Positions 1,652 to 63,903 of a stretch of DNA of 64,000 nt are shown here, in pieces. This DNA comes from Paraspadella gotoi (Eukaryota > Animalia > Chaetognatha): NCBI GenBank assembly GCA_051294375.1, contig CM119265.1, forward strand, positions 16,622,005 to 16,686,004, read 5' to 3'. Position numbers and translations under genes: made by a program. Every line of letters begins with the position of its first letter. The stretch's first letter is position 1. A model generated the notes under the pieces. That model searched no databases, was not told where the DNA came from, and saw only the letters and a list, made by a program, of their open reading frames with translations.

Positions 1652-1845
1652 GACGCTCAATTTCTCTCTAAATATTTAGAGGTAATAATTATATGAAAAC
1701 TTTGATATTAAACCTCATATTTAAAATTAAACATTTAGCAGCTTGAATAGCCACGAAAAAAAAAATAAATAGTAAAATCAGAAATAACGGTTGTGGCATA
1801 GATGTTAATGACACATGGTTCTAATTTGCAGGAAAAAACAAAAAT

Positions 1846-3510
1846 TCAAACACTCATATTAATTAATGCGTCCTTATCAGCCCTTGCGCTCTTCTCGTTC
1901 TCGATGTGATAAAGCACGTCGGCGAGTGCGGCTTCAACGTACGAGAGTTCCACGTTGTCGCTCATTGGCCGCCACGAAGAACGGTCCATGTCTTTCGGGG
2001 CGTGACGGAAGCGCGGCCCAAAATTGGCCTTGACCACAGCGCTGCGATACAAACTGATGGCTGGGTAGTACGTGCCTTTATGAGCATTGTCAAAAGCTTG
2101 GCCCAGGTTCTTGCCGTTGAGGTACCAAGAGATTATCAGTCCCGGATGGGGTTTCAATTTTTTTTCCTCGATCCCCGCGTTGTCTTTCTCCTCATAATAG
2201 AGGTAACTCTTAAACTTGATCAGCGGCTTGTCCTTGTAAGTCGCCGGGAGAACCTCAGGGTAAAACTTAGTAGGCAGCTGGATGTAGCAACCGAGAATGT
2301 CGCCGGCGCCGAACTCTCGTCCGTAACTCTTGCCGTAGCTTTGGTGGAATCGCGTTCCTTTTCGCGAGCGAATCGCGTAGGAAAACTTATCATAACCGCA
2401 GGGAGCCTGCACCTGACCCAGTGCCTGTGACCAGCCGATGCGCGCGTGAGCGCCGTCGGGCAGGTCTAAGATAGTAACTTCAAAGTACCAGTTGCCGCGC
2501 GAGACGCCATGAGTGGCGCGTATCATCGAGTAGCCCTTCTCCCCGGTGACGGTGAGCCGGTCATCGTGAACCTTGAGCTGGTGAGCACGGTCGTTGAGTG
2601 AGAGGCGTACCCTCGGCTCGACAAAGCGTCGGTAGAGGTAACCGGGGATGGGTTTGCCTGCCCATTCGGCAGAGTCCTCGAATTCTTGCCGGTTGGGCGC
2701 GTGGGGGTCAGGCTCGGCCAGAAAGTACCGGTAGCCGTCTTTGTTGAAGGGATGCTCAGTCGGGTACATGGAAGGCGACTTGCCCGGCAACGAGGTGTCT
2801 TGAATCTTGTTCTTTTTCTCCCTAAACTCGCGGTTAGCGTTCTCCGCGGCCTTGCGCTTCACACCGCGTCCCGTCTTCGCCGGCGGGTCGGCCTTTTCCG
2901 CCTTTTCTTGTTTGGGCTCTCTCGGTCCGGCCGAATAGCCGGACGGGTTGAGAAGCGACGACTTAAGTGTATCGTAGTTAGGGCCGATTTTGGCCAAGTT
3001 GCCATTGACCAATCCATACTTGAGGTCGCTTAGGTCCGTCTCGTCAATTGTGAAGACATCGTTGGTCTTGAAAAGCGTCTTGGAGACGGTAGTGTGCCAG
3101 GTGTTCTTCACGCGTCGCGGCGTGGTCGTCAATGCCTCCCAGTGTTTGTCGACGTAAGGGATAATTTCTTTGTCCTTGGAGTACATCTTGCCCTCGGTTC
3201 TGTCTTTGTCCAAAGCCATCAGGTTGGCAATAGCGGTAAAACACATTTGGCCGAAACTGGCCTGCTTTTTGTTGAAACTCTCCTGTCCGGTGGAGCTGCA
3301 GAGTTTGCAGAAGAACTGGTAGTTGGTCATGAAGCAGACGCAGGGGTCCACCGGGCAGGAAACGCAATCCTTGTGGTACCATCGCTGGCAGATACCACAC
3401 TGTAGTTCGACGCTGCCTACAGTGCGTTTTTTGTTGCAATAGCAATCAATAGAGTTGGCTCCCTTGCTGGACGATCCGCCGCTTAACAGGCCGCTCGGTC
3501 CTTCGGCCAT
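1846..3510 (-). CDS. ASH2L: Set1/COMPASS subunit ASH2-like; intronless
   Basis: N-terminal atypical PHD (CYC..ELQCGICQRWYHKDC), winged helix, EHPFNKDGYRY, SPRY domain (LSLNDRAHQLK, GYDKFSY), C-terminal DPY30-binding helix. First ATG at 3510. Confidence 0.96.
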   Translation of the reverse strand: MAEGPSGLLSGGSSSKGANSIDCYCNKKRTVGSVELQCGICQRWYHKDCVSCPVDPCVCFMTNYQFFCKLCSSTGQESFNKKQASFGQMCFTAIANLMALDKDRTEGKMYSKDKEIIPYVDKHWEALTTTPRRVKNTWHTTVSKTLFKTNDVFTIDETDLSDLKYGLVNGNLAKIGPNYDTLKSSLLNPSGYSAGPREPKQEKAEKADPPAKTGRGVKRKAAENANREFREKKNKIQDTSLPGKSPSMYPTEHPFNKDGYRYFLAEPDPHAPNRQEFEDSAEWAGKPIPGYLYRRFVEPRVRLSLNDRAHQLKVHDDRLTVTGEKGYSMIRATHGVSRGNWYFEVTILDLPDGAHARIGWSQALGQVQAPCGYDKFSYAIRSRKGTRFHQSYGKSYGREFGAGDILGCYIQLPTKFYPEVLPATYKDKPLIKFKSYLYYEEKDNAGIEEKKLKPHPGLIISWYLNGKNLGQAFDNAHKGTYYPAISLYRSAVVKANFGPRFRHAPKDMDRSSWRPMSDNVELSYVEAALADVLYHIENEKSARADKDALINMSV

Positions 3511-3726
3511 GACAGCGAAGGACAAAAGGGACTAAAAAAACAAAAAAAAAACAAAGCTCTAATGAAACACGTTTTGCACAAAACCGCAAAGAAATTTTAA
3601 TTTTTTAACAATATTATATTTTTCATCTCAGCCATGACAGCAAAAGACAGTAAACAAAAAAATCAGAGCTCTCAAGCAGCACGTGTTGCACAAAGCCTCA
3701 AATAAATCTTAATTTTCTAACAAATT
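3506..3726. repeat. Degenerate tandem duplication (~120 bp) of the ASH2L upstream/start region
   Basis: gccatgacagcgaaggaca...agctct...cacgttttgcacaaa...ttaatttt (3506-3612) recurs as gccatgacagcaaaagaca...agctct...cacgtgttgcacaaa...ttaatttt (3631-3725). Confidence 0.8.
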
Positions 3727-4175
3727 TATGAAATTGGTACATTCATTTCGGAATCGATGGATTCGCGAGAAGGAACTTCAACGGGTTTTCGCGGGTTAAA
3801 TAACCAGTCCCAAATAACCCAGCCACCGAAAATAATTAAACCAAAAGTTTCAAACGGGAAATTGAATCTTTCCGACAACCGCTTCGACTTCACGGTGTGA
3901 TATATTTTTTCTCGGATCGCAGCAGCGCGCTCCGCCTCCTCCGGACTTAGCTTCTCTAGCTCCTCCATAGGGATGTTGTGATCTAGCCAGTCCAAATTCG
4001 TCTCGGAGCCAACTTTTTCTCTCTCTTTACTTTCGCCAAGCTTATTGGGAGGAAGATTTCGCGATGCCAAAGACCTCGACGGTGCCAATGGAACAATCGA
4101 GGGTCGCGAGACGAGAGACACAATGTGCAGAGGCCTTGAGCCACGGAGAGCGCGAATTATCATTGGAGTATACAT
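3726..4175 (-). CDS. Small unknown protein, probable mitochondrial single-pass membrane protein
   Basis: R/S/L-rich N-terminus free of acidic residues (presequence-like), one hydrophobic helix FGLIIFGGWVIWDWLF, GC-rich coding-like composition. ATG at 4175 (or 4163) follows a GCTTTAG acceptor. Confidence 0.6.
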   Translation of the reverse strand: MYTPMIIRALRGSRPLHIVSLVSRPSIVPLAPSRSLASRNLPPNKLGESKEREKVGSETNLDWLDHNIPMEELEKLSPEEAERAAAIREKIYHTVKSKRLSERFNFPFETFGLIIFGGWVIWDWLFNPRKPVEVPSRESIDSEMNVPIS

Positions 4176-4323
4176 TATAGTAACTAAAGCAAAAAACAAA
4201 ATATAATAAAAAACTAATCGAAGCATCGCAGAAAAATCAGGGGAAAAAGTGGGAACTCATTGAGCTATTTTTAAAATTGAATAAAAAGAAAAAAAGAAAA
4301 AAGTACTTCGAACATGATATAAT

Positions 4324-12254
<7,931 letters not shown>

Positions 12255-12557
12255 TGTTTTTATTTCACTTTCGAGAACAAATATATTTTAAATCTTAAAG
12301 GCATAGGCAAAAAGATGCTAAAAATCAAAACTTAAGGTGACTACGTTTGAAACATGATTCGTCTATGGGTTGTATGATTTAAACTTGAAGGGTTGTTTGG
12401 GGAAAATTGTATGATTTAAAGGGACGTTATTATTGGCTCATTTTAACCGCTCTTAAATAAATTAAATAAAAAAAATAATAATTACAAGATAATTTAACCG
12501 CTTTATTCGTTTGACTAGGATACATTTTTCTGAAACCTTCTTCCAGAAGTTCTCTGA

Positions 12558-13213
12558 CACGGATTTCAAATGGGAGTGAAATGAAAGGATCAAATACTGT
12601 GGCTAAATAATTCAGATTTTGCACTCTGGTAGAAAAATTGCTGACGTTTTTTATTTTCCAACTCCCAGTAGTCCAGCTTGCTTACTTTCTTAGTTATGGG
12701 CTCATGAATGGCATGGTCGAATTTCAAAAAGCAAACTTTTTTGCATTTGAATAGGACATTCCTGTTATAAAATATATTTTTATGAAAAAAATGTAAAATG
12801 TTTGAAAATGTTGGTTCATCTTATGACAACCATTTTCATTTTATACGTTTTCTCTTTAAAGCTTATAAAAAATACAAATTTTAGCTTTGAAAAATAATTG
12901 GAAAAAAACAATGATCTGGCAAGTGCCTGTTGCCTAACTAAACCTTAAAATATATTAATGAACAATTTTTTGCATGCTCCCGAAACATTATACTAAATAA
13001 TAAATGTAAAAGAAATAGAAATTTTCGTATCATTTTTTTTCACAATGAGTTTAAAAGCGCACCAGTTGCTGTGATGTAAAGTATTATCAATTTGCTTTAT
13101 AGGAACATAAACGTCTGGGAATTTTCTAACTAATGAAGAACAAATATTATTCACATTCAGTCAGTTAAGAGTTATATCAATTCTTTTCATTTCACTCCCA
13201 TTTGAAATCCGTG
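12558..13213. mobile_element. Non-autonomous TIR element with CACGG ends in the YME1L-RECQL gap
   Basis: cacggatttcaaatgggagtgaaatgaaa versus tttcatttcactcccatttgaaatccgtg (~29-bp TIR); TSD degraded. Confidence 0.8.
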
Positions 13214-13353
13214 TAGACTTAATCAAGTTAATGCACTCAGTGCAAAATTGAGATTCTGATTCCTGGTCTTGAGCAAGTCCGTTTTTCGAAAACGTTAACA
13301 TTCCTTAAATATCAGACTTAATTAATACTAAATAATATTATTTATTAAAAAGA

Positions 13354-16300
13354 CTATTTCGTTTGTTCTAACTTCGGTTCGGATATAAAAACTAGGGGGG
13401 ATTTAGTTTTCCTGTTCGACTTAGTTGAAAAATGATTAGCGTCCTTATCAGCGCATGTTGGTTGATGGTCGAGACAAAACTGGCAAACGTTTTTGCCTTC
13501 GTCGACTCCGACAAAGACAGGGGCGAACGCTGTTGTTGAGGCTGCCCGATGACGAGAGGCCTCATCCTCCAAAGCCTTTAACTCTGAGGACCCCTTAGAG
13601 TCCTTTTGGTTAAGGATGGCCTGCCATTCGGCCTCGTCGAGTTTGTCATTCCTCTCTGCGGCAACGACGCTACTATCAACATCCTTAGGAGGCGTTTCCG
13701 TCGGAGCGGACGCTCCCGAACTATCCACAGTCTCGTCATTGTTGGAATTGCGACTGACGATCTTCGCCTCTTTCACTGGCGCGAGGTCGACTACACCGCC
13801 AGCCGCGCCAGCCGGTGCCACAGAGGAAGCGGAAGAAATCATCTTGACTGCGCCGCTTCGGTGCGTGGGGGTGTTTTCTGAGTCTTGATACTAACAAGCA
13901 ACAAATGTTGTATAACCACACAGTCATTGATTAATAATTTATTAAATAACTCAAAGGCCATACTTGACACGATTTTACGACTTTGTCAATTTCTTCGCCG
14001 TCCAAAGTCTCGTATTTGAGGAGGGCTTCGGCCAGCGCCTTGTGTTCGCGGTGATACTTAAGCAAAAGTGATCTTGACCTTTCGTAAGATGCTTCCAAAA
14101 GCCGTTGAACCTCCAAAAATGTATTTAAAAAATGATTCCTTAAGCTTCATTGTACTCGGTGGTAATTTAATGGTAAACAAGTACCTCGACATTGATGAGC
14201 CTAGCAAATGACGCGTCAAGAGTGACGGCATCAGTGTCGAACGACCGGCATTTAAATCGCGTAGTCATTCCCCATGTCTTTACCATCCCCGCTGCGATAT
14301 TGGTGGCTTGTTTGAGATCCCCTAAAGGCAGAAGTTTAAAGAAAAGAATCATTGGCCGCAAGACATCGATTCCAACGGCTTTCTATCAACAAATCATTAA
14401 TACATGTATCGATTTTTTTAAAATTTGGTCTTTCATCTCATCCTTGCTTAATAAGCTTATGCATTGCTTATGAATTCTCGGGTCAATCGCCCGCCTCGTA
14501 CCCTTCGATCTTGTGGATACAAGAGCATCCCCATAAACGATCTCCTCGGCGATCCTTCCAGCGAGAAGTCGATCCATCGCCGTCATCAATTGACCCTTCG
14601 TGTCGGAATAAAGCTCCGCCTCGGGAATGTAAGACGTGTAACTGATGGACAGAAAGTCATAAGACTGTATATGAAATGAATCTTAGCAAAACAATTGGCA
14701 TTGGAATTTCAAAAGAATTTTTTTGGTCATTTTATTTTCTCTCCACTCTTACAAGAAGGGATAATTTTTGTATTGTTTGTAGGTACTTACCAATTTCCCC
14801 CCAAAAAATTATCTTTTTAAAATAGCGTTTAATATATATTTTAAAGCGAACAAATTTACAAGTTTAACCATTGAACTCACCCCAAATCGCTTTCCCTAGG
14901 AATGATAGTTAATCGATGAATCGGGTGAGAGTGAGGAGAGAAAAGGCTGACGACGGCGTGACCTGCCTCGTGCCAGGCCGTCACTTCGTTGGTAAACGAG
15001 TCAGGCAAACGTTCCTGGGATGGATGGAACGTTTCATGGATTTCATAACCAGCTCAAACCGCCCAAACAACTTTTTACTCTTTCACCTTGTGCATGTGGC
15101 CAAGAATTTGATCTTTCGCCCATTCCAAGTGCTCCAGGGCAACACCTTCCTTTTTGTCTAAAAGAGCTTTGGAAACGGCCATGTTGACCAAACGCTCCAG
15201 CGTGCCTGCGGTAAAACCGGATGTGCCACGAGCAAGAAACGTTAAAAGGCGAGAATCCACGAAGCCGTCTTTGGAAGATGAGCTTTCGGTAGATGGAATG
15301 TGGCCGGTGCCCACCGACGTGGAAGGATCCATTCTTATTTCATTGAGATACCTTTGGTAATAACGATGAAAAGCAAATTATGAGTCAGTGACTCAGTGTC
15401 CATTACATTGAGCATATTTTCCCACAATTCTGGATTAATCAGCGGCTCTGAATTAGAGTTCCGATAACCGTTAATTTTTTAGGAAATTTCGGCTTAACCG
15501 TTAAAACTAACATTTTTAAACGGTTAACCGTTAAGATCGGTTAATTTTATATTCAACTTTAAATTTAAAATATTAAGATTTAAACAAAATAAAGTATTTA
15601 ATGGTATTTTCTTTTAACTCTGGCTCTTGAATGCGCTGATAAAGACTTGAAACAGAGTCGAAACATGTCTATTTTTATGTCAAATAAAATTGTTGTTGTA
15701 ACAAAACAAATATTTTGCTAATCTCATAACACAACGAAACGAAAGGATACCATCAAATTCTAATTCTATATTTTGTTTTCTCTTTATCTCTTTTTGCTTT
15801 CTCTTTTTCTTTCTCTACTTCTTCTATTCCCCATTATTTTTGTAGTTGTTAGTTTCTTAAACGCTTGTTTTCTGTTGTTAGTCTTTCATAAACTATGACC
15901 AATGGTCATTGACCATAAATATAAATATGAATTTTAATTTATTGATAGACTGGTTGATTTATCGATTGATCAAAATATTTATTGATTAATAAATATATTT
16001 TTCAGTTTAATTAAAAAGTATATCATCATTATTCTTTTTTATGTCTTTTTTAAGATTCGTTCCCTCTATTATTAATTTTTAAATTTTTTTAAAATAATTT
16101 TTTTATTTGGTTTTTATTCATTTTTTTCATTCATTCGGTTTTATTTCATTTGCTTCTTTGTTAATTTTAAAGAGGGAAAGAAAAAGAGAGAAAAAGTAAA
16201 ATAGGGATTATTTATTTTTAGCTAAATTGAATATATATTATTGCATGAAAGGGCAAAAAAAAGGAAAAAGCAAAACGGCGAAAAAAAGAAAGAAAAAGAA

Positions 16301-18208: not shown

Positions 18209-18253
<45 letters not shown>

Positions 18254-47422: not shown

Positions 47423-47769
47423 CAAGGTTTTTTTAATAAATTAATGGAATAAGAAGAAGAACAAGAGAGGAAAATTTCTCAGAGGAAAAAAAATTTAAAG
47501 AAATTAGATATATTCTGATATAATATTTTTTCAATATTTGTTATTGTTGTTATTATATTAATGTTTGGGTAATAATTATATTAAAATTGAAATTAAGTTA
47601 AATTAAAGTTTAGAATAAATTAAAATTATTATATAAATTTAAAAAAATCTTAAAAGCATAAGGATCGTCGCAATCGCATAAGAAAAATCAGGATGGACGA
47701 CAAATTTTGATATTAAAAAAAAGAAAATTTGAGAAAAGAAAATTAATTTATAAACAGAAAAAAAAATTA

Positions 47770-48240: not shown

Positions 48241-48691
48241 TTTTCGGTCAATTTCAAACAGAAAACGCTGAAAAATCAGTTTCAAATTAGAGAAAAAAAA
48301 TATTTATAAACAAAGAATCACATGTAGGCAGACAATTTTAATTCACGTACATGAATAGATTGTTCTTATTTTCAAAACGAGGTACAAACTTTTAAGAACA
48401 AAGAGAAAAAGGAAGCCACTCCAAACTGTAGCAGATGATTTTCTGTTAAAATTAAAAGAATGATATTTTAATCAAAGTGGCACAAAAATTAAGGCAGAGG
48501 TATGCGGCGTAAATTCGCTTGCAATAAAGTAATTTGCAAATCGAGTTAAAGTTAAAAATAAATTCATGCTCAATTTGAACTCCAAGAAAATTTAAAAAGC
48601 GTCCTTCAAAACAGCCTTCACGGTGTCACATGTTAGATTAAACAGATTAACCTAAAAGAAACAGTCTTAAAAACTAAACGAAATAAAAATA

Positions 48692-49616
48692 TCAGGCCGC
48701 TAACTTACTCGTCCCGGCGACTGTTAGGAGATTTGTTTTAACCGCTGCCGGCGAATCGATGCTCATCTTTCGCCCAATGCAGTCACGGTATAACCGGAAA
48801 GTCTCTTCCGCAGCGTGGGAACACAAGCTGAGACATTCATGAAGTTGATCGTCGGAGAGTGCTCCACCATGCCGCCCGCTAGAGTGAGAAGCGACGACAC
48901 GATTTTCTGTCGATTCAAAGGCGAAGGTGAGAACAGCGACGGCATCGCGCTCTTCAGCATCCGTGGGGTCCACGACGACGCGGGGCTCGGTCACAGGCGC
49001 CAAGTTGGACTTGGACTCTGCGTCGTCTTCAGGAGAGCGAAGCAAATAAGCGCAAGAGACTGCGGCGAACATCGCGCGCATAGGAACGCCAGCATCGAGA
49101 AGCGCCAGACAACAGGCGTTGATGCTGGCCGAAAGTAGGCTGCCGCTGGTCGATCCATTACCCTATTACACATCACCCTATTTTTTTAAAAGAACGCAAT
49201 GAAGAAAATATTTTTGATCATGACCAACTTGAACTTCTTGAACAACGACATTCAGGGCGGTGCGAGGATGCAATCGGCCGATAATACATGAGTCAATGGA
49301 GTTTCGTATTATTTCTTCTTTCAACTTTGAAGCGCAGCTCGACATCCCAATCTTAGGTTTAACGAGAACCTGAAGTCATTAATATAAATTTCTCGATTAC
49401 GCATAACTAGAAACAGTACCGTCTCAAACCACAAAACCCTACATCGACAGTAGCCCGGTCAATCCGTTCTTTTGAAATACGGACGTCCGTCGGCCCATAA
49501 ACGGAAGCTATGACAGTCGTCTCATCGCCGCAGTGGAAAGAGGCCGACCCATCGGCTCTAGAAATTAGTGACAGTTCACACGACATCGATCTCATCAAGA
49601 CCTGAGGGGCTGACAT
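48692..49616 (-). CDS. EXOSC5: Exosome complex component RRP46; 3 exons
   Basis: SRADGSA, SVYGP, HPRTALNVVVQ, GSLLSASINACCLALLDAGVPM, VDPTDAEE. Confidence 0.93.
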
Positions 49617-49786
49617 TTTAAGTTCGTGAAAATCGTGAAACTTCTGGCCGAATTGTTTCAAACGAGGCAATCTTAAGCAAAAAGAGAGAACAAAATACAT
49701 AAAAGAAAACTTTAATCAAGTCTCATCGAGGCAATTGACAATAACAACAAAAAAAAATTGAATTTTGTTAAAACCAATCGGTCCAA

Positions 49787-50066
<280 letters not shown>

Positions 50067-51085
50067 CTCTCAACGTTTACTGTTTGACCGTTATTGATTT
50101 TTATTTAAATAACCCAACTTTCTGTAGGTCAAAAAAGGTTTTGAGCAAAAACAGCATGATTACGTTGGTAAACGTTACATTCATATCATCATAAGCGAAC
50201 ATCTTTTTTCACTGTATTTTGATGTGGCACCAAATGGGAATTTATAAACTCGAGCCATTGATATGGTCTCAAAGACATCACAGAAAAATGCTAAGGAGAC
50301 GACGTTGAGAAAAAATCCTTAAGCAAAAATTGAAGATACCGAATTACAGAACTTATCATTTAACTATGGTAGCCAGTTTTGGACAAATGAAAGTAAATTT
50401 TAAAGGTTATAATTATAATATATAGATATAGTAAGTAATTCACATAATCATCACACGATTTTTTTTGGGGTGAAGGTGTTTTTTTAATTTTAAATGATTG
50501 TCTAAATAAAATCCTAAGTCTGAATCACACGTAGACGATTGATAGGTGTACGTATGAAAGGGTACTTATTACACTCATATAGATTGTAACTATTAATACA
50601 TATGCTGACGACACAAACGAATTACGCTGGTAATATTAGCCTCAAGTTAGGTAATACTACCAATAGCAATAAATGGTTAGTCATTTAGCCATTAAACCCG
50701 GCAAGAACATTTAGAGCTCATGCTAATGATTGAACTTCCCTTGTCTTCATTATCGCGGTTATAAAAAAAATGTGGACCTATACTTTAACAATTATTCAAA
50801 TTAATCAATTTAAAAATCAATCGAGAGCCATAATTAAAAAAAAGAAGAAAAAAAAGAGAAAAAAAGAGAAAAAAAAAGAATTTCCTATCGCCTTCAAATA
50901 TAGAAGAAAAAAGTAATCCAAGCCACGAAGCGGTTCATCGCGAAATCCTTCACTCACGACGCAGTCTCAAAATCAACTTCACCGCGAATCTCAACAAAAA
51001 AGAAAGTCCTAATAGCGAGTGTGTATCGGAGAATCTTTGTTGGACATAAACCCGGCACATCATCATCACGGCCGCAATCAATTCA

Positions 51086-53216
51086 CTAACGTCTCACGTA
51101 AAAAAGAACGTAGGCCTCGGGGGAGACAACGTCATTCGGGTCACGGATGCGCGAAACCATGCGGTCGTTGAAGGCGAACCAACCGTCCAGCGTTCGGCAA
51201 GCGGCGGTGTAGTGTCCCCTCGATAAACTTCCGAAATGATTTGAAACGCAGTAAAGGTCGTAAACGCAGATGTGTGCGGTTGACTCGCTCTTCGAGGCCG
51301 GTCGTGTGAACGAGAGATCGAGGCCATCAAGTGGGAAATTAACCAGGTCGTTGACTTTTTTCGGTCGCGCTCCGTGATCCGACGAGTGAAATCGGTTAAG
51401 AGAAACGACGAGAACTTCTGGCAGTCGGTGGAGATCAATTTTCTTGGAAAAGTTCCGCGGCATCTTGCACTTCGGGCACCTCCATTTGCAAGAAGGGGAT
51501 GCCGGAGGCGAAGCGTCGCCGACGACGCCTGTACCTGCGGCGCACTCTGTGCGAGACCCGACGATTTCGCGAGAGAGGTAGGCTCGCAGACATTCCTCCA
51601 CCGTGACGGCGCGTTTGGGAAAAGAGGACTCGGGGATAGGAAGCGCGAGGCATTGAAATTGTTCGTAAGTCGAACTCATGGTGCCGCAGGTGAGGCATTC
51701 GAGCGTAGAGCAACTTTGACCGGAAAAAAGATCAGTGACGATCGAACGTCCGTTTTTCAGCAGTTGCGATTCCCAGAACTTTTTGGCAAGCAACTCCCCC
51801 TTGTTGTTGTTCCCATCAACCACCTGAGAAAAGCAAAATAAATTCATTTTAAATAAAGCAAAATAGTGAACGTTTAAAACCGAATTACAATGAAACTTGT
51901 CTCACCTGAGAGGACCTCATGGTGGTAGCTGTAAGGGTGAATCTCTCACCCTCCCTCTTATGGGAGAGATCTTGGTGCAAGGCGTTCAAGAACCAGACGA
52001 GAAATTCGGACGAGTCCTGCTGCTTGTTCTTGGGAAAAGGAAACCCGAAGGCGGGTAAGGCCTCGATGAAATCGTCCGGATCGACGGAGGGTTCCTCGCA
52101 GGACCAAAGGCGCCGAGTTAAATTTTGATACTCGACCGAAAGAGGGACGTCGTCGCGTGAGAGCGGCGTTTGTAGAACCCAGCGTTTCAGCCGCGGGATA
52201 TTGGACAAGCATTGAATAATGCTGTTCATGTAACAGTAGAAGCTTGGATTGCGCAGCCCCGCCGTGACGGGCCTCGTCGCGGCGTCCACATGAAAAACTG
52301 ACGAGGCGAGTGGCGACGGAGGTGGTTGAGGCCGGCCTGGCGAAGATTTTAATGATTCAAATTTGGAACGAGGCGGTGTGGGAGTTAAGCAGTATTCGTG
52401 GTCGCGCATCGGAGGAGTCACGAGAAAGGACGTTTCCTCCTCGTCCAAGTCGTCAGCTTCGTCGCCGTTAACGACTTCTCCCGGGGACTCTGGAGGCGTC
52501 TCCAAGGGGATATCGGGAAGCGGCGGCCGCTTCGCCCCGGAAAGGACTGGATTGACCGATGCTTTTGGAGGCGTAATAGGAAAAATGATGTTGGCCGAAG
52601 GGGGCGGGGTGTCCCTGGCGGCGTGGTCCCTCTCCACCTCGAAAGGATCAAGGGGAACGAAGTTGTTCAAAAAATCCTTGGTAGGGCCGCGGCGTGAAGG
52701 CCCCAACTTGCGCCTTTTTTCGTTGCGCGTCTCGCCGGCCGAAGCGGCGGCTAGAGCGGAAAGCAAAGATCCGTGGAAGGCCAAAGTAGTTTCGATCTTT
52801 CTTGTTGTCGGGAAGAAATACTTACCCGGGTCTCCACTTTGAACGGTCGGGTCTTCTGAATCTCTCTTAACGGATGAATCCACAGGCTCGACGATATCTT
52901 TCACAGAGCTCGACCCATACCCTTTCCGTTTCTTGACATTGCTCCGGCCCTTCGGACTCGTCTCGCCAAGATCCACCCCTTTAAAGAGGTCTTCGACAAG
53001 GAGCCCAACGATTCTATTCTTTCTTGCCTTGGGATTTAGCTCCACGTTACGCAGTCGGCACATCTCTTTGAGTTCGTACATATCGCACTGTTTGTGAAAG
53101 CATTGGGCGACGTGGTGCGAGAGCTGAATCTGCCGTTCCTTCTCATTTTTAACTTGTAATTCTATGGCAGCCAGCCCAGTTGTCATGAATACATTGATTT
53201 TACTGATTGGGTCCAT
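51086..53216 (-). CDS. Ubiquitin-specific protease (USP2/8/21-like) with unusual N-terminus; 2 exons
   Basis: Cys box GLRNPSFYCYMNSIIQCL, QQDSSEFL, His box HFGSLSRGHYTA..FNDRMV; intron approx 51904-51824. Confidence 0.88.
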
Positions 53217-53300
53217 ATTGCTATAGAAATCAAAATAAAATTAATATACATATGAAAAGAATAAATTAAGAAAAAACCGGCAACAATGGTTAACTGTTAT

Positions 53301-54950
53301 TCATTCGATCTTCAAATCTTTCAACAATGATTCCCTCGCTTCTACCATTCTCGATCGGGCTTGCTGAAAGGCCTGGACGACGCTGATCAAATGAAACATA
53401 CCACCATGCTTTTCTTTCGCCCCGTGAGCGACGTTTCCGAAAAAGGGCGTTCCCGATTTGGAACGGAGTGACTTCGAGGAGCTCACGAGCGATTGCGACT
53501 GAAAAACCAAATTCATACGCACCCGAACTGATCCGGTTGAGATTGTCTGTAAACCAAACTGGTTCAGGTGAAATACTTCGGACTCGAAATTTTCAACTGA
53601 CGGTTTGGCAATGTAAAAGGGATCGTCCAATTCTGGCGATCCTCCCACGAAGTAACGACGCAGTTCGTCAACGGGACCGCCGACCGGCCTCCAGCAATGG
53701 ATGTCGAGTGAATGGGAACCAGGCCGAGTCGGCAGTGGAGTGACTCCATATCCCTCGGTTCGCGTGCGGTGCCATGAATCACGAGACATGACCTGTAACA
53801 ACAACTGTGGCCACTCCTCGAAAGAAAAGGAAAGCTCCGAGGCCTTTAAGCGATTAGTTTTGCACGGGCGGGCATCTTTCTTTTCCCCAAGATTCCGGTA
53901 GACCAAGTCCAACTCGAAACACTCGCCAAACATGGCCATTCCGGATCTTCTCACGCCGCAGCAATGAGTCGACCCAGTCAAGACGGAGTCCAATTTCGAG
54001 TCGGATTCCGCTGAGGACGACCACCACCATTTACCGGGTACAACGCGCCAGGCGACGTAAAGCCGGTCGTATTCAAATCCGCGGGCGGAGACAATCTCGC
54101 CAAAGCAAGTAAGTCGTAGCCCATCCGGAGGCGGAACCTCGAAGTCGACGCCGACAAGGGTTTCGCGCGCTTTTGCGTGTCGCTCGTAGAAGCGGGCAAG
54201 AATGTTTGATTCTTTTACCATCTCTTCACGCAACATCGGTTCGCTGGCGTTTTCTAGGTAAATTTCCCAAGAGTCGAGGCCACCGAGGGATTCTACGCGG
54301 TAGGGCTGCTTCTGCTCCAAAGGATTGAAGTCCGGGTCGATAATGAAAGTTCCGTTTAGGTTGTAGTGTAGGGTGCAAAGGACGACCTGGACTTCGACGC
54401 CCTCTTCTGCCGGATCAGCTTCTTCCGGAGTTAGATCGGCTACGATTCTCATCGTCCGCCAAACTGATCCCTGCTTAGTTTTTCCACCCATTACGGAAAA
54501 TGATTCGACCGACATAGGGCGCGGAATTTCTTCATCGGGTGATCTGATCAATGAAACGTTGGCATCGAGGGCGGCGTCAACATCGACGTAAGAAAATATC
54601 CGGTTGGTCGGATGGGGTTCGCCCGCGTTGCGAATAGCCGCAACCGACTTTCGGTACTTTTCCACCAGGGGTGTGTCGTTGGGGGAAGTGGGTCGTCCGT
54701 ATTCGACAAATTCGCGGCGGCTAAATATTTTTTGTTGCCAGGAGACAAGTCGAGTTTCTGGCACCGAGTGAGTCTCTAGCTGACGCATCTGTTTAAGCTC
54801 AACTTCGTCGCCTTGCTGCCGCGCCATCTCGAGAAACAATGAAGAGGATGTAACTCGCTGAAGTCGAACGCGTAAACGGAAGTTTGAAATGGCGTCGCGT
54901 GACCGGTAGACGGCCGTCGATCGCTCACGCTGCGTCGGGAGGGACGGCAT
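53301..54950 (-). CDS. MKS1: Meckel syndrome type 1 (B9-C2 ciliary transition-zone) protein; intronless
   Basis: AVYRSRDAISNFRLRVRLQ, SWQQKIFS, GEIVSARGFEYDRLYV, DSWHRTRTEGYG, LRRYFVGGSPEL, AFQQARSRM. Confidence 0.93.
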   Translation of the reverse strand: MPSLPTQRERSTAVYRSRDAISNFRLRVRLQRVTSSSLFLEMARQQGDEVELKQMRQLETHSVPETRLVSWQQKIFSRREFVEYGRPTSPNDTPLVEKYRKSVAAIRNAGEPHPTNRIFSYVDVDAALDANVSLIRSPDEEIPRPMSVESFSVMGGKTKQGSVWRTMRIVADLTPEEADPAEEGVEVQVVLCTLHYNLNGTFIIDPDFNPLEQKQPYRVESLGGLDSWEIYLENASEPMLREEMVKESNILARFYERHAKARETLVGVDFEVPPPDGLRLTCFGEIVSARGFEYDRLYVAWRVVPGKWWWSSSAESDSKLDSVLTGSTHCCGVRRSGMAMFGECFELDLVYRNLGEKKDARPCKTNRLKASELSFSFEEWPQLLLQVMSRDSWHRTRTEGYGVTPLPTRPGSHSLDIHCWRPVGGPVDELRRYFVGGSPELDDPFYIAKPSVENFESEVFHLNQFGLQTISTGSVRVRMNLVFQSQSLVSSSKSLRSKSGTPFFGNVAHGAKEKHGGMFHLISVVQAFQQARSRMVEARESLLKDLKIE

Positions 54951-55530
54951 TCTTTTTTTTCCGTCGCTTACAACCACCAGACGCTAGCTACAGTAATAGC
55001 TAACTGAGTTGGCATAATTTTCTGCTAGATAAAAAAATATAATTTTTATTTCATTCAAAATGATGCGCGACAACAAAAATTTAAGGTGACTTTTCAACAT
55101 ATTCGAAAAACAGAAGTATTTTTTCACGAAACTAATCCAGTGCTTGAAAGGAAAAAGAAAATATTGGGTTACTTAAAACCTGTACTTTATAATACATGAA
55201 GGCGAAAAACAGCATTTTATCTAAGCAATACGCATTTTTCTAGTGCTAATCAAATAGTCACCTCATAACGGAGGACAGATCTGGAATTTGAGAATAATAA
55301 TTTACATTTGAACACAAAAATTAAAAAAGGAGTTCTATGGCTACCAGACATTCAAAAACGTATAAAATATGATGGTAAATATTATTCTTAGTTTTGAATC
55401 ACTACCCTGAACTACATATGACATAACGTCAGGCACAGCGGCAAAAGAATGGAAAAAGAATGTTCGTCGGAGGCTTTTTTACTGCAATTGACTAGAAGAC
55501 TCTTGAATCCTTGGCTAGAAAAAAAATCCT

Positions 55531-58500
55531 TTATATCTCTTCCATTTGTAAATCAAAAGCGTCTTCGATTTCCGCTTCGTAGTTGTAAAACGCAGCGTGC
55601 ATTACAATGAAAACGATAGAGGCCCCTATCACCCAAAAGACGGCCGTACCAGCACCTAGTGTCGGAGTAAAGTGTAAACGTCACGTTATATAATATCATA
55701 ATATCTACAATAAATGAGGAGATAGTGTGTCCCAATGGTACTGTCTGTTAAGAAAACCTTACCAGATCGAAAAGAATTTAATTAATTATAGGATACGTAA
55801 ATTGAACAAAGCAAACTCCTGTACAATTTATGCGTTTATCTGTAATGCTGTATGTCCTTTTGAATGTACTGTTTCAACTAATTGTTGTAAACGAATAAAA
55901 CACATATATTACATAAAGCAATTGGTAATTTTTTTTTTCCCGTGATTTTTTATATGCAGGACATTAAGAAACTACCTCATATTTTTAGTTCCAGAGCTTT
56001 TATAATGCAGTAATCATTTTTTAAAAAAAATATCTACTTAATTTGTTCATATTACTTTTTAATTGATTTAAATCGTCGCTGCCTGACCCAAGCCTGATAA
56101 GTTCCATCACTCTGGCTTCTCAAAATCCTGAAGATCAATGACATGCCAATGATAGCGGTAGCCGTCCAAATTCGAACCATGAGTAATTCGCTAATTAAAA
56201 TTAGTATATTGCTATATAATGTTAAAATCTTTTTTGGAACATTTAAATTTTTTTTTAATTGAAAAATGTAATTACAACTTTTTAAAAGTTTGATGTTTTA
56301 TTACTGAAAATTAGCAAAAACTGCTAAAATCATTGGATGATGACGATGAGGATGATTTTTTTAGGTTTTTTCCAATTTTGACCCACTTATCATCAAAATA
56401 TTGAAAAAAGAATTATACTTTGTGTGGACAACTTTTTATAAGCTATCTGAATCTGCTTTTAAAAATATAAAATTCAAAAAATTTTTTTTACATTTCCTAT
56501 CTATAAATAAATATTAAAAAATTAATTACTAGTGCTTCATACATTTCTGAGAAAACTTTCAATGGACCAAAATTTTCTAAAATGGCAAGAAGTTTAATTT
56601 GGGAAGGTTCTCAAATAAAACTTCTGACCCACCCCATTGACAAAGTTTGGCTCTACCAATGACTCGGCTCATCGTCACTACCCCATCTAGGGGGCCAGCT
56701 TTATTTTGAGCTCTTTCTTTTTCTTATCAGAGGAGGATTTAGCCTGCCGTCCAATTCTCCTCTTCCTCTTCTTTCCTCCTCCTCCTGCCCCTCAGTATAT
56801 TTTTTCTTGCAATACATTCTCTCGTTTCTACACTTCACGAAATATACCATTATTTTCCTCTGTTTCTTCACGCCTTCAATTCCCCTGGAGCTTATCTTTC
56901 ATTGCGATTGCGACGATAAAAATGATGTTTGTCTGTCCGTCCCCCCTTAGCATTAAACTCCAATAACTCGTGATTGGATGGATGGATGGATTGGAATGAA
57001 ATTTTGTGTGTGGTTAGGAAAGTGTGTGATTGAGATGGATATAAATTTTCGATGGAATCGTCCGAGTGGAAAAGGGTTTAAATGGAAAAAACAAAAGTCA
57101 TGTTTACTTATAATTATTATATTTATTAAAATTGGATAGATAAATTGAAATGAAATTTTGTGTGTGGGTAGGAAAGTATGTGATTAAGCTGGATATTTAT
57201 TTTTGATATAATTGTAGGAGTGGAAAATTCAAATAAATGTGTCTTTTGGTTTTCTATCTTAAAGTTTCTCTCTTTCTCTGATTGATTGATTTACCAAATT
57301 ATGCCAATTGATAAATTATGCCAGTTGACCAAATTATGTCAGTTGACCAAATTTAGCAAGTGGACCAAATTATGCAAGTAGATTAAATTATGCAAGTTGA
57401 TTAAATTATAAAATTTGATCAAATTATGCCAGTTGACCAAATTATGCGCAGCTACTGGTAATGATTGATAGATCAATTGAATTATAGATTTTTTATAGAT
57501 TTATTATGAAGTCTGTTATGATTTGTTTTTTTACGATTTGTTATGTTATAATTTGTCATGCTCTGTTAAGATCACAAATTGAAATTCAGATTTATCATCG
57601 GATTAGCTTATAACCGCTTAATTATCGTAGGCAGATCCGACATTGTTTGCTCAAACTAGTTTTAATATTTGTTTATTTCTTTTTATTAATGTACTTATTT
57701 TATATAAATTAAAATTTAAATAATTTATATCTATTTAAAATATTCTTTTACATAATTTTTTAAATAAAATAAAAAAAACTATCTAGAAATAAAAAAGTTA
57801 GAAATGAGCACTCATTTAAATTGAATGTTCTGCAAAGAAAAATTGATAAAAATTGTATTCGAAATATAGTATCATAAATGGTAAGAACTTATCTTGATAT
57901 TGTTATCTCAGAAATAAGATTTAATAACACAGTTCCGCACAAGATGTAAAAGTTAACCGACAGTACCATTGGGACACACTTTAAAGAGAGAGACAAAAAG
58001 AGAATATAAGCTTGAACGAACCAGCGAGAATGAAAATGGGAATGGAAGTGATCCCGACGCCGGTGTACTGCTGCGCGAGGGAGACTTCCTTTCCCATAAA
58101 GCGCATCTTTCTTTCCTGGTTCTTCAGCTGCAAAATATAGCAGGCGCCAAGCGAGGCTCCGATGGCGATCAGCAGCATCGGAGACGTTAACAGGCAGTAG
58201 GCGATCAGGACGACGAAAACGAAAATATAATTGCTCTGGAAGTGATCGATGTTGCGCGCCAAACGACGACCGAGTTTAGGAATGGTGTTGGGAGGCGCAA
58301 ACCTAAAAAATTAACATACTTATTATTAAAGTGAAAACAAAAGAGAAGTAAATAAAATAAATTACCTCTTAGTGTTGACGAAATCTCCCCAGGGCTGTAC
58401 TTTTTGACGACGATCGCTAACCCACTGACGCATGGCACTTCCGGCCGGGGTGGTTGCCATTGACATTATAGACGAAGCGATTGATGGAGAAGAAACCGGG

Positions 58501-58583
58501 GAGCTACTTTTTCCGGCGGAGCCTTCATCATCCATGAGTGGTATTTTGATCTCCATGTCGCCGCTTAAGTCGTTAGAAGCCAT
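55531..58583 (-). CDS. RABAC1: Prenylated Rab acceptor 1; 3 exons
   Basis: QPWGDFV, RNIDHFQSNY, AGAGTAVFWVIGAS..HAAFY, acidic end LQMEEI; exons approx 58583-58366, 58302-58022, 55655-55531. Confidence 0.93.
55723..57981. mobile_element. TIR element filling most of the PRA1 large intron
   Basis: agtgtgtcccaatggtactgtcNgttaa at both ends in inverted orientation; flanks TGAGGAGA/TAAAGAGA match 6 of 8 (possible decayed hAT TSD). Confidence 0.75.
56895..57659 (+). mobile_element. Non-autonomous Helitron-like element with internal 18-bp tandem repeats
   Basis: gtctgtccgtcc near 5' end; (ttgaccaaattatgccag)n at 57290-57450; 3' hairpin followed by CTAG|T. Confidence 0.65.
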
Positions 58584-59353
58584 GGTATATATGTTACTTC
58601 TCAATGATCTAAAATTATAAAAAGACACGAATACCGGTAATTGTAAAAAATTTTCTTTTGCTTCAGAGAAACTACTTGATCTTTTCATTTCCATAATATC
58701 AAACAAACTTAATGAACAGCTTAGAAAAAATCAAAAGACCAAAATTATATTTAAAAAAAAAATAGTGTGTTTATCAACTGATCACTTCAGCAACCCAAGC
58801 TATTATGGTTTGATTTAAAGCCACGAAAAAAAATGCCCATTTAGCTTTTTAAATAACAATACTACGTCTGATGAGACAAAGTTAATAGATTCTGGAACCA
58901 CAATAAAAATTATGCTGTTTAGAATGCCTCGCCTCGGAAAAAGTAAATCTGTAAATATAAAAACCTGCATTTGTATTATCTGTTCTAGACCTCATTTGAC
59001 TAGTAAACAAGCAAATATATAAGTAATAAGAAGATCTATGAAGTAACATATCCATAAAAAAATTCAAAAAATAAAAAAAACGGCCAAAAGAAGGCAACCC
59101 CATCACAGACCAGTAGAACAAGTAACTAAGCGCATTGATATATTAGCTGAATACTTCACATGGAATAAAATATACAAAAAGTTTTAAATTTCAAAAAAAC
59201 ATTTTTCTACCACCCAAAATCTAAATTGTGACAACTTCACTTAATTCAAAATTAAATATTCAGCAACAAATGACCTACTTATTTGGCAGCTACGTAGCAA
59301 ATAGGGCTCCATCTGACTGCGCAGAGCCAATATATTACAAGAATTAAAACTTC

Positions 59354-60928
59354 TTAGGGTCCCCGCCAGTTGTAAACTTCTCCGGAATAAACGTATCCGT
59401 TGGCCTGAGCGAGTTCGTCGTTTTCCTTCGGTCCTCTGGTTCCGTAAACGTACGGAATGGGCTTCGGCTTTTCCCTCTCGATGCGATGTAGAAGAGGAGT
59501 GAAGATACGCCACGCCTCAACCAATTCGTCGGAGCGAACGAAGTGAATCTGGCTGCCGCTGAAGACGTCGAGGATAAGTCGCTCGTAGGCGTCCGGGAGC
59601 ACGATGCCTCCGTACCGATGCGAGTAGGTAAGATCGAGCTCGGTAAGCTCGCACCCAAAGGTCATCCCCGGTTTTTTCGTCATCACCTTAACGTACACGG
59701 CTTCGTTGGGCTGGACGCGAATTACGAGCTCGTTGCGCTGCACATCGGGACCGAAGATATCGCCAGAGACGTCCTTGTATTGAATGCGAACTTCGGCCTT
59801 TCTCTCGTTGAGCGCCTTGCCGCACCTCAAAATGAACGGCACGCCCTCCCATCGCTCGTTGTTGACGCGGATGACGGCGGTGGCGAAAGTAGGGGTAGCA
59901 GAGTTGTCGGGTACGGTTGGGTCATCCCTATACCCTTGACGGGTTTCGCTATCGGCCGGAGCGTCAGGATTGCCCACGTACTGACCGAGAACGCAATCCT
60001 TGAGTTCGATCGACGGTACAGATTTGAGAACCTTTACTTTTTCGTCGCGAATATCTTCCGCGTTCAAGGAAGGTGGTTTCTCCATAGCGACTAGTGTAAG
60101 GATCTGCAGAAGGTGGTTCTGCATGACGTCGCGAATGATGCCGAAGCCGTCGAAGTAGCCACCGCGACCCTGCGTTCCAAAAGGCTCCTTGAAAGTGATG
60201 ACGACGGAGGCGATGTTGTCTCGGTTCCAAGTCGGTGCGAAAATGCGGTTGCTGAATCGCAACGTCAACAAATTCTGAACCATCTCTTTGCCCAGGTAGT
60301 GATCAATTCGATAGATCTCATCCTCAGCGAAGCGCTCCTCTAAGTGCCTCGAGAGTTTTAGAGAGGATTCGGAATCGTGACCAAACGGCTTCTCCACGAT
60401 CAACGAGATCTTCCCGTGGCCCTCGCGGCAATTTTCCGAGACGAGAGCGGACACGGCCAAATAAACGCTCGGGGGCAAAGCCAAGTAAAAATAAACTCGC
60501 TTGTTCTTATCCTTGCAGACGCCGTTGATGTGGTCGTTGAGTTTAATGAAATCCCCGGCCAAATCATAACTTCCCTTTACGTACGAATTGATAGCAAGAA
60601 ACTGGGAAAATTTATTCCCGTTATTTTTTTGCTCTTCTATAGTAAGTTTAGAATGTGGCGCTATTCTCGCTCCGATGTCGGCGACGGTCAAATCGGACCG
60701 AGCGTAGCCAACGATGCGAGAGTTCGCCGGAAGGAGTCCATCTCGGAAGAGCCACCACAACGTCGGGTAAATCTTCTTCTTGGACAGGTCACCCGACGCT
60801 CCCAGAACGACAAAGATGTGCACTACTTCCTTCTCCACCGAGACTGTCTCCCGGACAGCGGCGATGCCGGAAGCACGATGCTCTTGTGAGCCCTTCTTGT
60901 GACGAGTTTCGGGTTTGGCGGAAGACAT
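59354..60928 (-). CDS. G6PD: Glucose-6-phosphate dehydrogenase; intronless
   Basis: [33 protein letters not shown]. Confidence 0.98.
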
Positions 60929-61269
60929 CTTTGATCGTGAGACTCGTTGGAAGCTTCGAAAAATAAGTTACCCGCGACTGACGTTAGTTAATAGTGTATG
61001 GACCTGCCTCTCTTAAAATGAAAGTAAACGTAAAAAAAGAACAAAAAAAGGAGAAGAAAACTAAAATTAACTATTTTATTTAAAAAAAAAAACAACAAAA
61101 AAACCACAGGCAATGGAATAAAAATTAAGAAGAATTTAACTCAAAATGTTTAATAAATCATTATGATTGTCATATAAAATTGTTAACGAGTTTTTTTTAT
61201 TAATTTCAATCTCAGCACAATAATCTATTTGTTTTTAAGTTAACTCTTTTTTGTTTTACTTCATAAATG

Positions 61270-62391
61270 TTAAAGTCTTTCCTCGCGTCCGATATACATT
61301 TCAATGAGTTCGTCGGCCGCGTCGGCGGGAGCGAGACGACCATCGCTCACCCTACTCTCTATGTCTCTCGCCGAATCCTGACCCACTCTCGCATAAAACA
61401 ATTCTAAGAGTCTAGAGTTCACTCGGTTCCACATCCAAACCTTTAACTGTTGCTTCCTGCGCGCCTGAAACTCTCCCGATTCGATCATGGTCATTCGAAA
61501 CTTCTCCATCAGATCCCAGAGATCTTCGAGGCCATCGCCGGTTTTTGACGAGACTCGTTTGACGCAGGGTCGCCAGGACGAACTCCGCGGTCGCACAAAT
61601 TTGAGGGCGGAGGTGTACTCGGCGGAGATCTTTCTGGCGGCGTCAATGAGATTCCCGTCGCTTTTGTTGACGACGACGACGTCGGCGAATTCAATGACTC
61701 CTTTCTTGATTCCCTGAAGCTCATCACCGCCCGCCGGCGGAATGATCAACACGAACATGTCGACCATGTCGGCGACGGAGACTTCGCTTTGACCGACGCC
61801 CACAGTCTCCACGATTACGATGTCAAATCCACAGCATTCTGCCAGAGTGACGCTTTCGTTGGTGACGCGAGTGACTCCGCCTAAGGCGCCCGCATTAGGT
61901 GAAGGCCGGATAAAGGCGCTAGGATTGACTGAGAGTTCTGGCATCCGCGTTTTGTCGCCCAGAAGAGACCCGCCTGAGGTAGTGGAGGAGGGATCAACGG
62001 CAAGAACGGCAAGTTTGTAGTTCTTACCAATCAAAAGTTTGCCAACTGACTCGATGAAGGTGCTCTTGCCGGCCCCGGGGGGGCCCGTCAGTCCAATCCG
62101 AAATGACTTGGGGACGTCGAGATTGACGCGACGATTATGCTCGAGCACCATGGAAAGCAATTTTTTGGCATCAGCACGCTTGCGAGGGTGCACTGATTCC
62201 ACCAAAGTGACACTGCGCGCGAGTGCGGCACGCTCCCCCCTAACGATACCCTCAAAAAGATCGTGGACACTTGGTTGTTTCACTTTGAAATGGGAAAAGT
62301 TTGATTCCCACCGTCGAGCACAGATTGGGGTGTTCGGCAGTCCCTGATGAAATCGAAAAAAACGATTTGCCGGGAAGCAGATTTTCGACAT
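61270..62391 (-). CDS. MMAA: Mitochondrial methylmalonyl-CoA mutase GTPase chaperone; intronless
   Basis: Presequence; GPPGAGKST, VDPSS..GGSLLGDKTRM, ETVGVGQSE, GDELQGIKKG, NKSD. Confidence 0.96.
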   Translation of the reverse strand: MSKICFPANRFFRFHQGLPNTPICARRWESNFSHFKVKQPSVHDLFEGIVRGERAALARSVTLVESVHPRKRADAKKLLSMVLEHNRRVNLDVPKSFRIGLTGPPGAGKSTFIESVGKLLIGKNYKLAVLAVDPSSTTSGGSLLGDKTRMPELSVNPSAFIRPSPNAGALGGVTRVTNESVTLAECCGFDIVIVETVGVGQSEVSVADMVDMFVLIIPPAGGDELQGIKKGVIEFADVVVVNKSDGNLIDAARKISAEYTSALKFVRPRSSSWRPCVKRVSSKTGDGLEDLWDLMEKFRMTMIESGEFQARRKQQLKVWMWNRVNSRLLELFYARVGQDSARDIESRVSDGRLAPADAADELIEMYIGREERL

Positions 62392-62441
62392 TTTTTAAAA
62401 TCCTGTACATGTATATGACTATGAATGAGAATGAGATAGAT

Positions 62442-63722
62442 CTAGGTAAGTGTAACGTTTTTTATTTTTTCTAAAATCGTCCCTATGATCTTATTCAAGT
62501 ACTGTTCGGTATTTTCATCTTTGATGAACGAGGGAAAAACGTTGAGTGTAAAATCGGGTCCAAAGCGCTCAAACTCGGAACATTCTGCAGGGACTTCTTC
62601 GGAAATTTCTTTCTCCAAAATTGCAGCTGTCAATAGGGTCCAGCATTTGGCAGTATTCACGTGATTATAACCGCCTCCGCCTAAGACTAAAGTAGGAACT
62701 GGGCAAAATCCTCTCAATGACTCCAAACAACGCCGCATGCCTAATGGAGTAAGATTAAAGGCGAGGTTGGGATCGCCGGAAATGCAATCAGCGCCGCACT
62801 GTACGACGACGGCATCTGGTAAAAATTTTTTTGAGACTTCGCCGACTATTTTACAAAAAGTATAGACATATTTGTCGTCCCCGATTCCGTTTTTAAGCGG
62901 AACGTTTACGCAGTGACCCAGACCCTTGCCGATACCCTCCTCGTCGACGCCGCCGGTGCCAGGAAAAAATCCCGCCTCAAATTTGTGAAGCGAAACCGTG
63001 AAGACCGAGTTAGTGTGCCGAAAGGCTTCTTGCACGCCGTCGCCGTGATGAAGGTCCAAGTCGATGTAAAGGATTCGATTAAAAGTCTTTGACAACTCGT
63101 GAACGGCGATTACGACGTCGTTTGCGTAGCAAAATCCCGAGGCTCGATCCCGGTGTGCGTGGTGCCAACCGCCCATCCAATTTATGGCGATACCGCACCG
63201 ACCTTGCGTAAGGGAGCGGGCAGCCGCTAGGGAAGCGCCGACGCAAAGTTGGACAAAATCAAACGTTCTCTTCGTCGGGGGACAGTCGTAGGCCAAACCG
63301 AAGTCCTCGCCGGATTGGTCGACGTCGTCGTCTTCGTCAGCGGCGTTTGAATCGCGTAAGTAATTGATGAATGACGAATCGTGAAAGGAAATCAATTCGT
63401 CGTAAGAAGCCAAATCTGGTTTAATGATCCTCGTCTCCTTCAGCAATCCGTAACTCTGAACGAGCGAATGGAGCAAGAGTGCTCGACCGGTAATTTGTAC
63501 CAACCCGTTGCACCGCAAAAATAATCGCTCGGAGAAGACGTAGCCGACTGATGATGGAGCTAGATAAGGTTTACTAACTGTGAGGGACGGTAGAAGGACT
63601 GGAGTGTCTCGAGAGTAATTTCCGATTTTTTTACGAAACCGCCCATCGAATGAGCCATTATTAGCAAGAACGTTTTCGTCGTCGTCGTCGGAATTTAAAT
63701 CGTATGCACTGCAATGGGACAT
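62442..63722 (-). CDS. HDAC8: Class I histone deacetylase 8; intronless
   Basis: FGLAYDCP, GGWHHA, DLDLHHGDG, HKFEAGFFPGTG, GGGGYNHVNTAKCW (HDAC8-type); ATG 63722 directly after TTCCAG. Confidence 0.92.
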   Translation of the reverse strand: MSHCSAYDLNSDDDDENVLANNGSFDGRFRKKIGNYSRDTPVLLPSLTVSKPYLAPSSVGYVFSERLFLRCNGLVQITGRALLLHSLVQSYGLLKETRIIKPDLASYDELISFHDSSFINYLRDSNAADEDDDVDQSGEDFGLAYDCPPTKRTFDFVQLCVGASLAAARSLTQGRCGIAINWMGGWHHAHRDRASGFCYANDVVIAVHELSKTFNRILYIDLDLHHGDGVQEAFRHTNSVFTVSLHKFEAGFFPGTGGVDEEGIGKGLGHCVNVPLKNGIGDDKYVYTFCKIVGEVSKKFLPDAVVVQCGADCISGDPNLAFNLTPLGMRRCLESLRGFCPVPTLVLGGGGYNHVNTAKCWTLLTAAILEKEISEEVPAECSEFERFGPDFTLNVFPSFIKDENTEQYLNKIIGTILEKIKNVTLT

Positions 63723-63903
63723 CTGGAATAAGCCCAACTCTGAAATCTTTGATCGAATATCGTATATTGTAAAAAAAGAGTAGATAAATTCCTGGCACAA
63801 TTTGATAATTTAATTTCATGATTAAAAAAAAACGAACCCAAACGCCAAAAAAAGTTTTATAAAACATCACATTTTCAGTCTGTTAAAAGAAAAAAATGGA
63901 GCT

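Follow-up and report, generated by a model that had tools for sequence, protein, structure and literature searches.

What purpose is served by the AG dinucleotides that stand just upstream of start codons in a 64,000-nucleotide (nt) stretch of DNA from the arrow worm Paraspadella gotoi (contig CM119265.1, positions 16,622,005 to 16,686,004; hereafter the window), and that look like 3' splice acceptors without a partner? Eighteen genes of the window, called from open reading frames (ORFs) and Pfam matches, lie on the minus strand in a run that occupies the whole window (1..64000) and is open at both of its ends; if orientations were independent, 18 genes would fall on one strand by chance with a probability of 8e-6. 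An initial annotation had named nine such AGs and proposed that they are acceptors of spliced-leader (SL) trans-splicing. We favor this explanation, with a probability of roughly 85%, in the form that the AGs are SL acceptors of chaetognath operons, whose co-oriented genes are cotranscribed and whose downstream AGs receive a trans-spliced leader; it is supported by the leader on EXOSC5 records of relatives and by the published SL operons of chaetognaths. According to this scheme, the polymerase would transcribe several genes of the run together, and a 36-nt capped leader ending in TTTAAA would be trans-spliced at each downstream T-rich AG to yield single-gene mRNAs. Each such reaction would create the 5' end of the downstream mRNA while freeing the upstream RNA, possibly at the same G. 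Precursors that escaped this resolution would bridge junctions in an RNA assembly, and the weak donor of NSE4 could capture the MCM6 acceptor in cis, competing with the leader for the same AG. For the window's own sites we infer leader addition, a shared promoter and 3' ends at the acceptor.

The evidence for the leader comes from the relatives of one gene of the run, EXOSC5. A query with its 5' region gave eight matches, and 36 of the 40 members of their clusters were listed, including 23 JGI/Logan records taken to be of spliced type because they run across intron positions. Among these 23 listed records, four extend before the start methionine, and all four begin with [L/M]FK. Record P0316 starts with LSSFNLFK, which agrees exactly (8 of 8 residues) with the translated final 24 nt of the chaetognath leader SL2.0; SL2.0 is given in Table 3 of PMC2481426, and all forms listed there except SL1 share the terminal bases that code for LFK. 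Such a start is found in only 1 of the other 312 proteins collected. Records P0302, P0293 and P0297 follow P0278, a genomic record of their own species, back to a glutamine or lysine codon and then switch to [L/M]FK, and this codon is compatible with a CAG or AAG acceptor in the POLR2K-EXOSC5 gap. These three short matches are not independent, since they come from one species; P0316 belongs to another species cluster. When the three are compared with P0278, the leader peptide joins at two points 15 nt apart upstream of EXOSC5, which suggests alternative trans-splice acceptors in one relative. P0278 reads through genomic DNA from the last POLR2K exon across 213 nt into exon 1 of EXOSC5, and thus the POLR2K-EXOSC5 gene order is conserved with the window; an EXOSC5 intron position is also common to the window and the leader-bearing relatives. 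We read these records as pointing to trans-splicing of a chaetognath leader at the orthologous POLR2K-EXOSC5 junction. An in-frame fusion of the two genes, possible on paper in the window (a donor at the stop, an open linker), was considered and rejected as unsupported: in P0278 it is genomic DNA that is read through the stop, and none of the 23 spliced-type records is fused. The window itself gave no Rfam match, and an SL RNA gene is not expected there; a 20-nt piece of the leader had no match in the window at three mismatches. A metagenome scan with the G6PD alignment brought up no member of the clade among the 80 loci listed and the exact leader motif in none of them, and a scan of prokaryote genomes gave no match.

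The RNA of the window was examined in the contigs of run X1 on 38150-44400, a segment that holds three of the nine named sites (RRP9, NSE4 and MCM6); runs X2 and X3 yielded three records each. That X1 derives from RNA is seen from its lack of the introns of NSE4, RRP9 and the PWWP-like gene. A single contig of 7572 nt extends from the PWWP-like gene over RRP9 and NSE4 into the first part of MCM6 and bridges all three junctions, with the reservation that assembled contigs drop side branches and that a contig running across genes does not prove one molecule. It crosses the RRP9 and NSE4 AGs unspliced and without a gap, and bin depth stays constant at 186.9 across both sites; this is the depth of that one contig, which argues that there is no leader-bearing side contig at either (16 of the 104 loose contig ends were listed). 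At MCM6 it lacks a segment of 139 nt that begins with a GT at 38400, within the final codons of NSE4, and closes with the AG whose G is 38262. This donor scores 3.5 against 1.4-10.9 for cis donors, and its use removes the NSE4 stop, brings in a new stop a few codons further on and is out of frame with MCM6. The joint shows that the MCM6 AG is a working 3' splice site and is not unpaired in that RNA form; the uncovered 139 nt are not counted as absence of the unspliced form.

The initial annotation had held that mRNAs running unspliced through these AGs, or cis-splicing from upstream UTR exons, would speak against trans-splicing, and this one contig displays both, the former at RRP9 and NSE4 and the latter at MCM6. 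RNAs that stay unresolved or are cis-spliced have been described for systems with SL operons (PMC1488885, PMC12582326). Because such forms occur in SL operons and because contigs drop side branches, their presence weakens the word "unpaired" more than it does the mechanism. At 15 of the 16 candidate sites that we located before start codons, no donor above 5.6 bits lies within 55-250 nt (21 of 26 cis donors score at least 5.7), and for the MCM6 RNA form the word does not hold; as the donor used there is a weak one, sequence alone cannot decide whether a site has a partner donor. Two donor-like GTs, akin to the NSE4 donor in use, were also seen at stop codons, one overlapping that of POLR2K (49790, minus strand; score 8.0) and one overlapping that of the gene before the deacetylase (63907, minus strand; score 5.6).

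The same contig speaks for an alternative in which the mRNAs are stable polycistronic or cis-joined ones, the AGs being either cis acceptors of weak donors near the upstream stop or unused, and downstream cistrons being translated by reinitiation. It would account for the unspliced RRP9 and NSE4 AGs and for the NSE4-MCM6 splice, it agrees with depth arithmetic, which leaves no room for a further contig on the skipped 139 nt, and the two donor-like GTs at stop codons would suit it. However, a contig spanning genes does not show a single transcript, and the EXOSC5 records of relatives are leader-bearing and of single-gene size (all 23 spliced-type records stand on contigs of 911-1375 nt), with no POLR2K fusion among them. 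Moreover, spliced downstream cistrons are expected to trigger nonsense-mediated decay, which also counts against this alternative, and we hold it to be very unlikely.

If the AGs are SL acceptors, the far end of the contig may show how upstream 3' ends are made. The contig continues for 2884 nt past 38259, and along a 12-intron model of MCM6 its last base computes to 30892, the G of the T-rich AG before the FtsH-like gene; this is one of the 382 positions of the gap, 13 of which are AG ends. The model is one open solution, its boundaries having been compared only with human MCM6, and the computation concerns one junction, takes the contig to have no poly(A) letters and no indels, and uses the coordinates of the record rather than its letters. 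In operons of Ciona, polyadenylation takes place on the downstream acceptor's own G, and unresolved dicistronic RNAs are detectable (PMC1488885). The MCM6 RNA end computed on the FtsH-like acceptor G would match the zero-spacer arrangement of Ciona intestinalis and the SL1-type operons of C. elegans, as would an unresolved multi-gene RNA (PMC1488885). Unlike the Ciona operons, which are mostly dicistronic in that account, the present case involves another phylum and another leader, and its zero spacer would apply to one junction. AATAAA is present in 1 of 12 short gaps, and its two copies, against 2.1 in shuffles, mean neither enrichment nor depletion. The 18-gene run likely represents one or several operons. 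That all of it forms one polycistronic unit, with 18 genes or more, a length above 64 kb and double the gene number of the longest chaetognath operon reported, in which the trans-splicing cut rather than AAUAAA makes each upstream 3' end and a weak donor, as at NSE4-MCM6, gives rise to a cis-joined two-gene mRNA, appears to us unlikely.

The nine motifs named initially are all present on the minus strand (9 of 9), with their AGs 0-40 nt upstream of the ATG and no intervening ATG; the short motifs of ASH2L and CLCC1 find matches at 6 and 8 places of the window. It is also correct that most of them follow a U-rich tract, as the 12 nt before the YAG include 9 or more pyrimidines in seven of the nine and only 8 in HDAC8 and CLCC1. 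The further statement, that the gaps are too short for a separate promoter and untranslated region (UTR) exon, is in keeping with gaps of 84-270 nt at eight of the nine but not with that of PRA1 (770 nt). Gaps are given here as stop-to-ATG distances, and nine of the 16 measured in the run are below 250 nt. The candidate sites before MMAA, G6PD, MKS1, POLR2K, EXOSC5, the FtsH-like gene and RECQL had not been named.

Since the nine sites had been picked by eye, the test took in every gene whose ATG lies within the window, 17 in all. In 9 of the 17, a YAG that follows 12 nt with 9 or more pyrimidines lies no more than 60 nt from the ATG, whereas dinucleotide shuffles of these windows yield 4.3 such genes (p 0.006); a YAG of this kind is found in 2 of 17 antisense windows, in 7 of 61 intron-interior windows and at just 6 of the 26 cis acceptors of the window itself. 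Across six settings of the rule, p ranged from 0.006 to 0.116. Scoring with a matrix trained on those 26 cis acceptors led to p 0.01 when the 17 genes were taken together and p 0.018 for the nine named ones; against intron interiors the mean is distorted by AG-less windows and only the rank test is usable (p 0.018). RRP9, MCM6 and NSE4 are the only sites that stand out singly, and those of HDAC8, CLCC1, USP, PRA1 and RECQL score no better than their own shuffles. The acceptor enrichment is thus real but modest. Independent genes, with short promoters of their own overlapping the upstream 3' UTR and with AGs present by chance in T-rich spacers, may account for single genes after long gaps, as YAGs after T-runs are common in gaps that are 44% T, the five sites just listed do not rise above shuffles, and the gaps of 580-4700 nt before PRA1, MKS1, POLR2K, the PWWP-like gene and RECQL hold room for promoters, but as an account of the run this is hardly credible given the enrichment over composition-matched shuffles, gaps of 50 and 84 nt, the use of the MCM6 AG, the leader-bearing orthologues and the shared orientation of all 18 genes.

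Besides the unspliced passage over RRP9 and NSE4 and the cis-spliced assembled path at MCM6, several points weigh against the SL acceptors that we favor. The leader was found at none of the three sites covered by the assembled RNA contigs (RRP9, NSE4 and MCM6). The leader evidence consists of protein translations of relatives, whose EXOSC5 is 51-78% identical by exon, and it concerns a single gene in two species clusters, at a site that the initial annotation had not included. The modest size of the enrichment is itself such a point, as is the matrix result for the eight genes outside the initial picks (p 0.056, not significant). The contig end at 30892 was derived from record coordinates through our own MCM6 model and was noticed after the fact. 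Finally, cis use of operon acceptors is very rare in flatworms, according to PMC12582326.

SL trans-splicing and operons have been published for the chaetognaths Spadella cephaloptera and Flaccisagitta enflata, the Spadella RPS14-PCNA operon having 3 nt from the poly(A) site to the acceptor (PMC2481426). For P. gotoi itself, 10,197 trans-spliced genes (about half) have been reported, with operons that take up 18% of genes and, under a 250-bp rule, reach nine genes at most (PMC12460157). The locus resembles this published system in the leader end on transcripts of relatives and in its co-oriented housekeeping genes with short gaps. It differs from the P. gotoi operons in that the run has at least 18 genes rather than nine, a layout that may be one unit or several, and in that an upstream cistron is cis-spliced to an operon acceptor, which is not mentioned in the parts of PMC2481426 and PMC12460157 drawn upon. 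In flatworms, one AG can be used by both SL and cis reactions, and chimeric models extend over operons (PMC12582326); the MCM6 AG is like these acceptors in being apparently open to both reactions and unlike them in that the cis form is here the assembled path. SL-resolved operons of chaetognaths are therefore already known, the locus is a further instance of them, and it may already stand in the operon table of PMC12460157. Three features go beyond the same parts of these two papers: the 18-gene run, the contig end that computes to an acceptor, and the cis-spliced joint at MCM6.

The features of the run are collected in Table 1. Gene names beyond the level of Pfam families are labels of the initial annotation or presumptive; the PWWP-like label, too, is a presumptive one based on a motif, the gene having no Pfam match. 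An in-frame last exon of the FtsH-like gene may reach 13354.

Table 1. Genes of the run and candidate acceptors, all on the minus strand, in the direction of transcription.
Gene	ATG or extent	Gap before gene (nt)	Candidate acceptor	Motif	Remarks
1, terminal gene without name	stops at 63904				ORF/Pfam call
2, histone deacetylase (HDAC8 in the initial annotation)	ATG 63722	181	63723..63737	63731-63720	directly abuts ATG; weak tract
3, MeaB/MMAA	ATG 62391	50	62403..62417		shortest gap of run; site inside it, 11 nt upstream of ATG
4, G6PD	59354-60928, ATG 60928	341	61012..61026		uncertain: further AGs at 61004 and closer to ATG
5, PRA1	ATG 58583	770	58609..58623	58621-58609	25 nt upstream of ATG
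6, B9-domain (MKS1-like)	ATG 54950	580	54988..55002		37 nt upstream of ATG; alternative AG at 55022
7, USP	ATG 53216	84	53221..53235	53229-53214	4 nt upstream of ATG
8, POLR2K	50066-49787	1019	50122..50136		55 nt upstream of ATG
9, RNase PH (EXOSC5)	ATG 49616	170	49672..49686		55 nt upstream of ATG; orthologous gap of relatives bears chaetognath leader
10, PWWP-like		4697
11, WD40 (RRP9-like)	ATG 41991	270	41999..42013	42012-41989	tandem CAGCAG, 7 nt upstream of ATG; top score of all
12, NSE4	ATG 40189	169	40216..40230	40230-40216	26 nt upstream of ATG
13, MCM6		171	G at 38262	38271-38262	3' end of 139-nt GT-AG segment 38262..38400
14, FtsH-like AAA/M41	ATG 30811	382	30892..30906		T-rich AG, 80 nt upstream of ATG; upstream ATG between acceptor and start
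15, RecQ helicase (RECQL)	ATG 12254		12294..12308		weak; 39 nt upstream of ATG; no gap figure, FtsH-like end uncertain
16, 149-aa ORF	3726-4175, ATG 4175	148	4184..4198	4193-4184	8 nt upstream of ATG
17, ASH2L	1846-3510, ATG 3510	215	3532..3546	3540-3532	21 nt upstream of ATG
18, MCLC/CLCC1-like	ATG 1651	194	1668..1682	1675-1668	weak; 16 nt upstream of ATG

The 4.7-kb gap between the two halves of the run bears a transposon. This 2.5-kb element (44095-46589) has terminal inverted repeats of about 1 kb, CAC/GTG ends and a 4-nt flanking duplication; it presumably resembles DNA transposons of the Chapaev type, and it lies about 100 nt upstream of the PWWP-like ATG, dividing the run into two blocks of nine genes. 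A repeat recognized by eye is common to an MCM6 intron (32160-32850) and the EXOSC5-PWWP gap (46640-47420). The PWWP-like gene has a micro-exon of 11 nt (42940-42950, minus strand), backed by the letters between the two sides of an RNA joint. Only one plus-strand gene was found, a C2H2 zinc-finger ORF (20755-21879) that lies inside an FtsH-like intron. The 149-aa ORF is without a confirmed homologue, a search of representatives having returned one uninformative match, and its Atlas leads of 0.87-0.88 (below 0.9) are towards small subunits of mitochondrial complex I. G6PD and ASH2L have no introns in the window, and genomic fragments of their relatives break at shared, intron-like positions; the deacetylase, MMAA and MKS1-like genes are likewise intronless. 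Taken together with the break positions, this suggests in-place intron loss in the lineage of the window, and a literature search gave no report joining chaetognath operons with intron loss.

The same two genes bear on the placement of the window among animals. Relatives of its G6PD are 74-78% identical, named animals reaching at most 67%, and for ASH2L the figures are 84-88% and at most 54%. In trees that hold no flatworm, nematode or named chaetognath rows, both proteins form clades of support 100 with those relatives, on long stems, and ASH2L falls among spiralians, weakly (83) beside rotifers. The grouping of the orthologues with leader-bearing records makes a placement in Chaetognatha likely, though by an indirect route. 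A gastrotrich or catenulid origin was also weighed; literature searches on SL in these groups brought up nothing relevant, and the agreement with the chaetognath leader makes either origin unlikely.

As the mechanism has already been published for arrow worms, the finding mainly adds a well-defined locus, which provides 16 candidate acceptors, a conserved POLR2K-EXOSC5 junction and one site of apparent competition between cis- and trans-splicing. With it, reads that already exist could be used to test two questions, namely what length operons reach in chaetognaths and whether the trans-splicing cut produces their 3' ends in the manner of Ciona.

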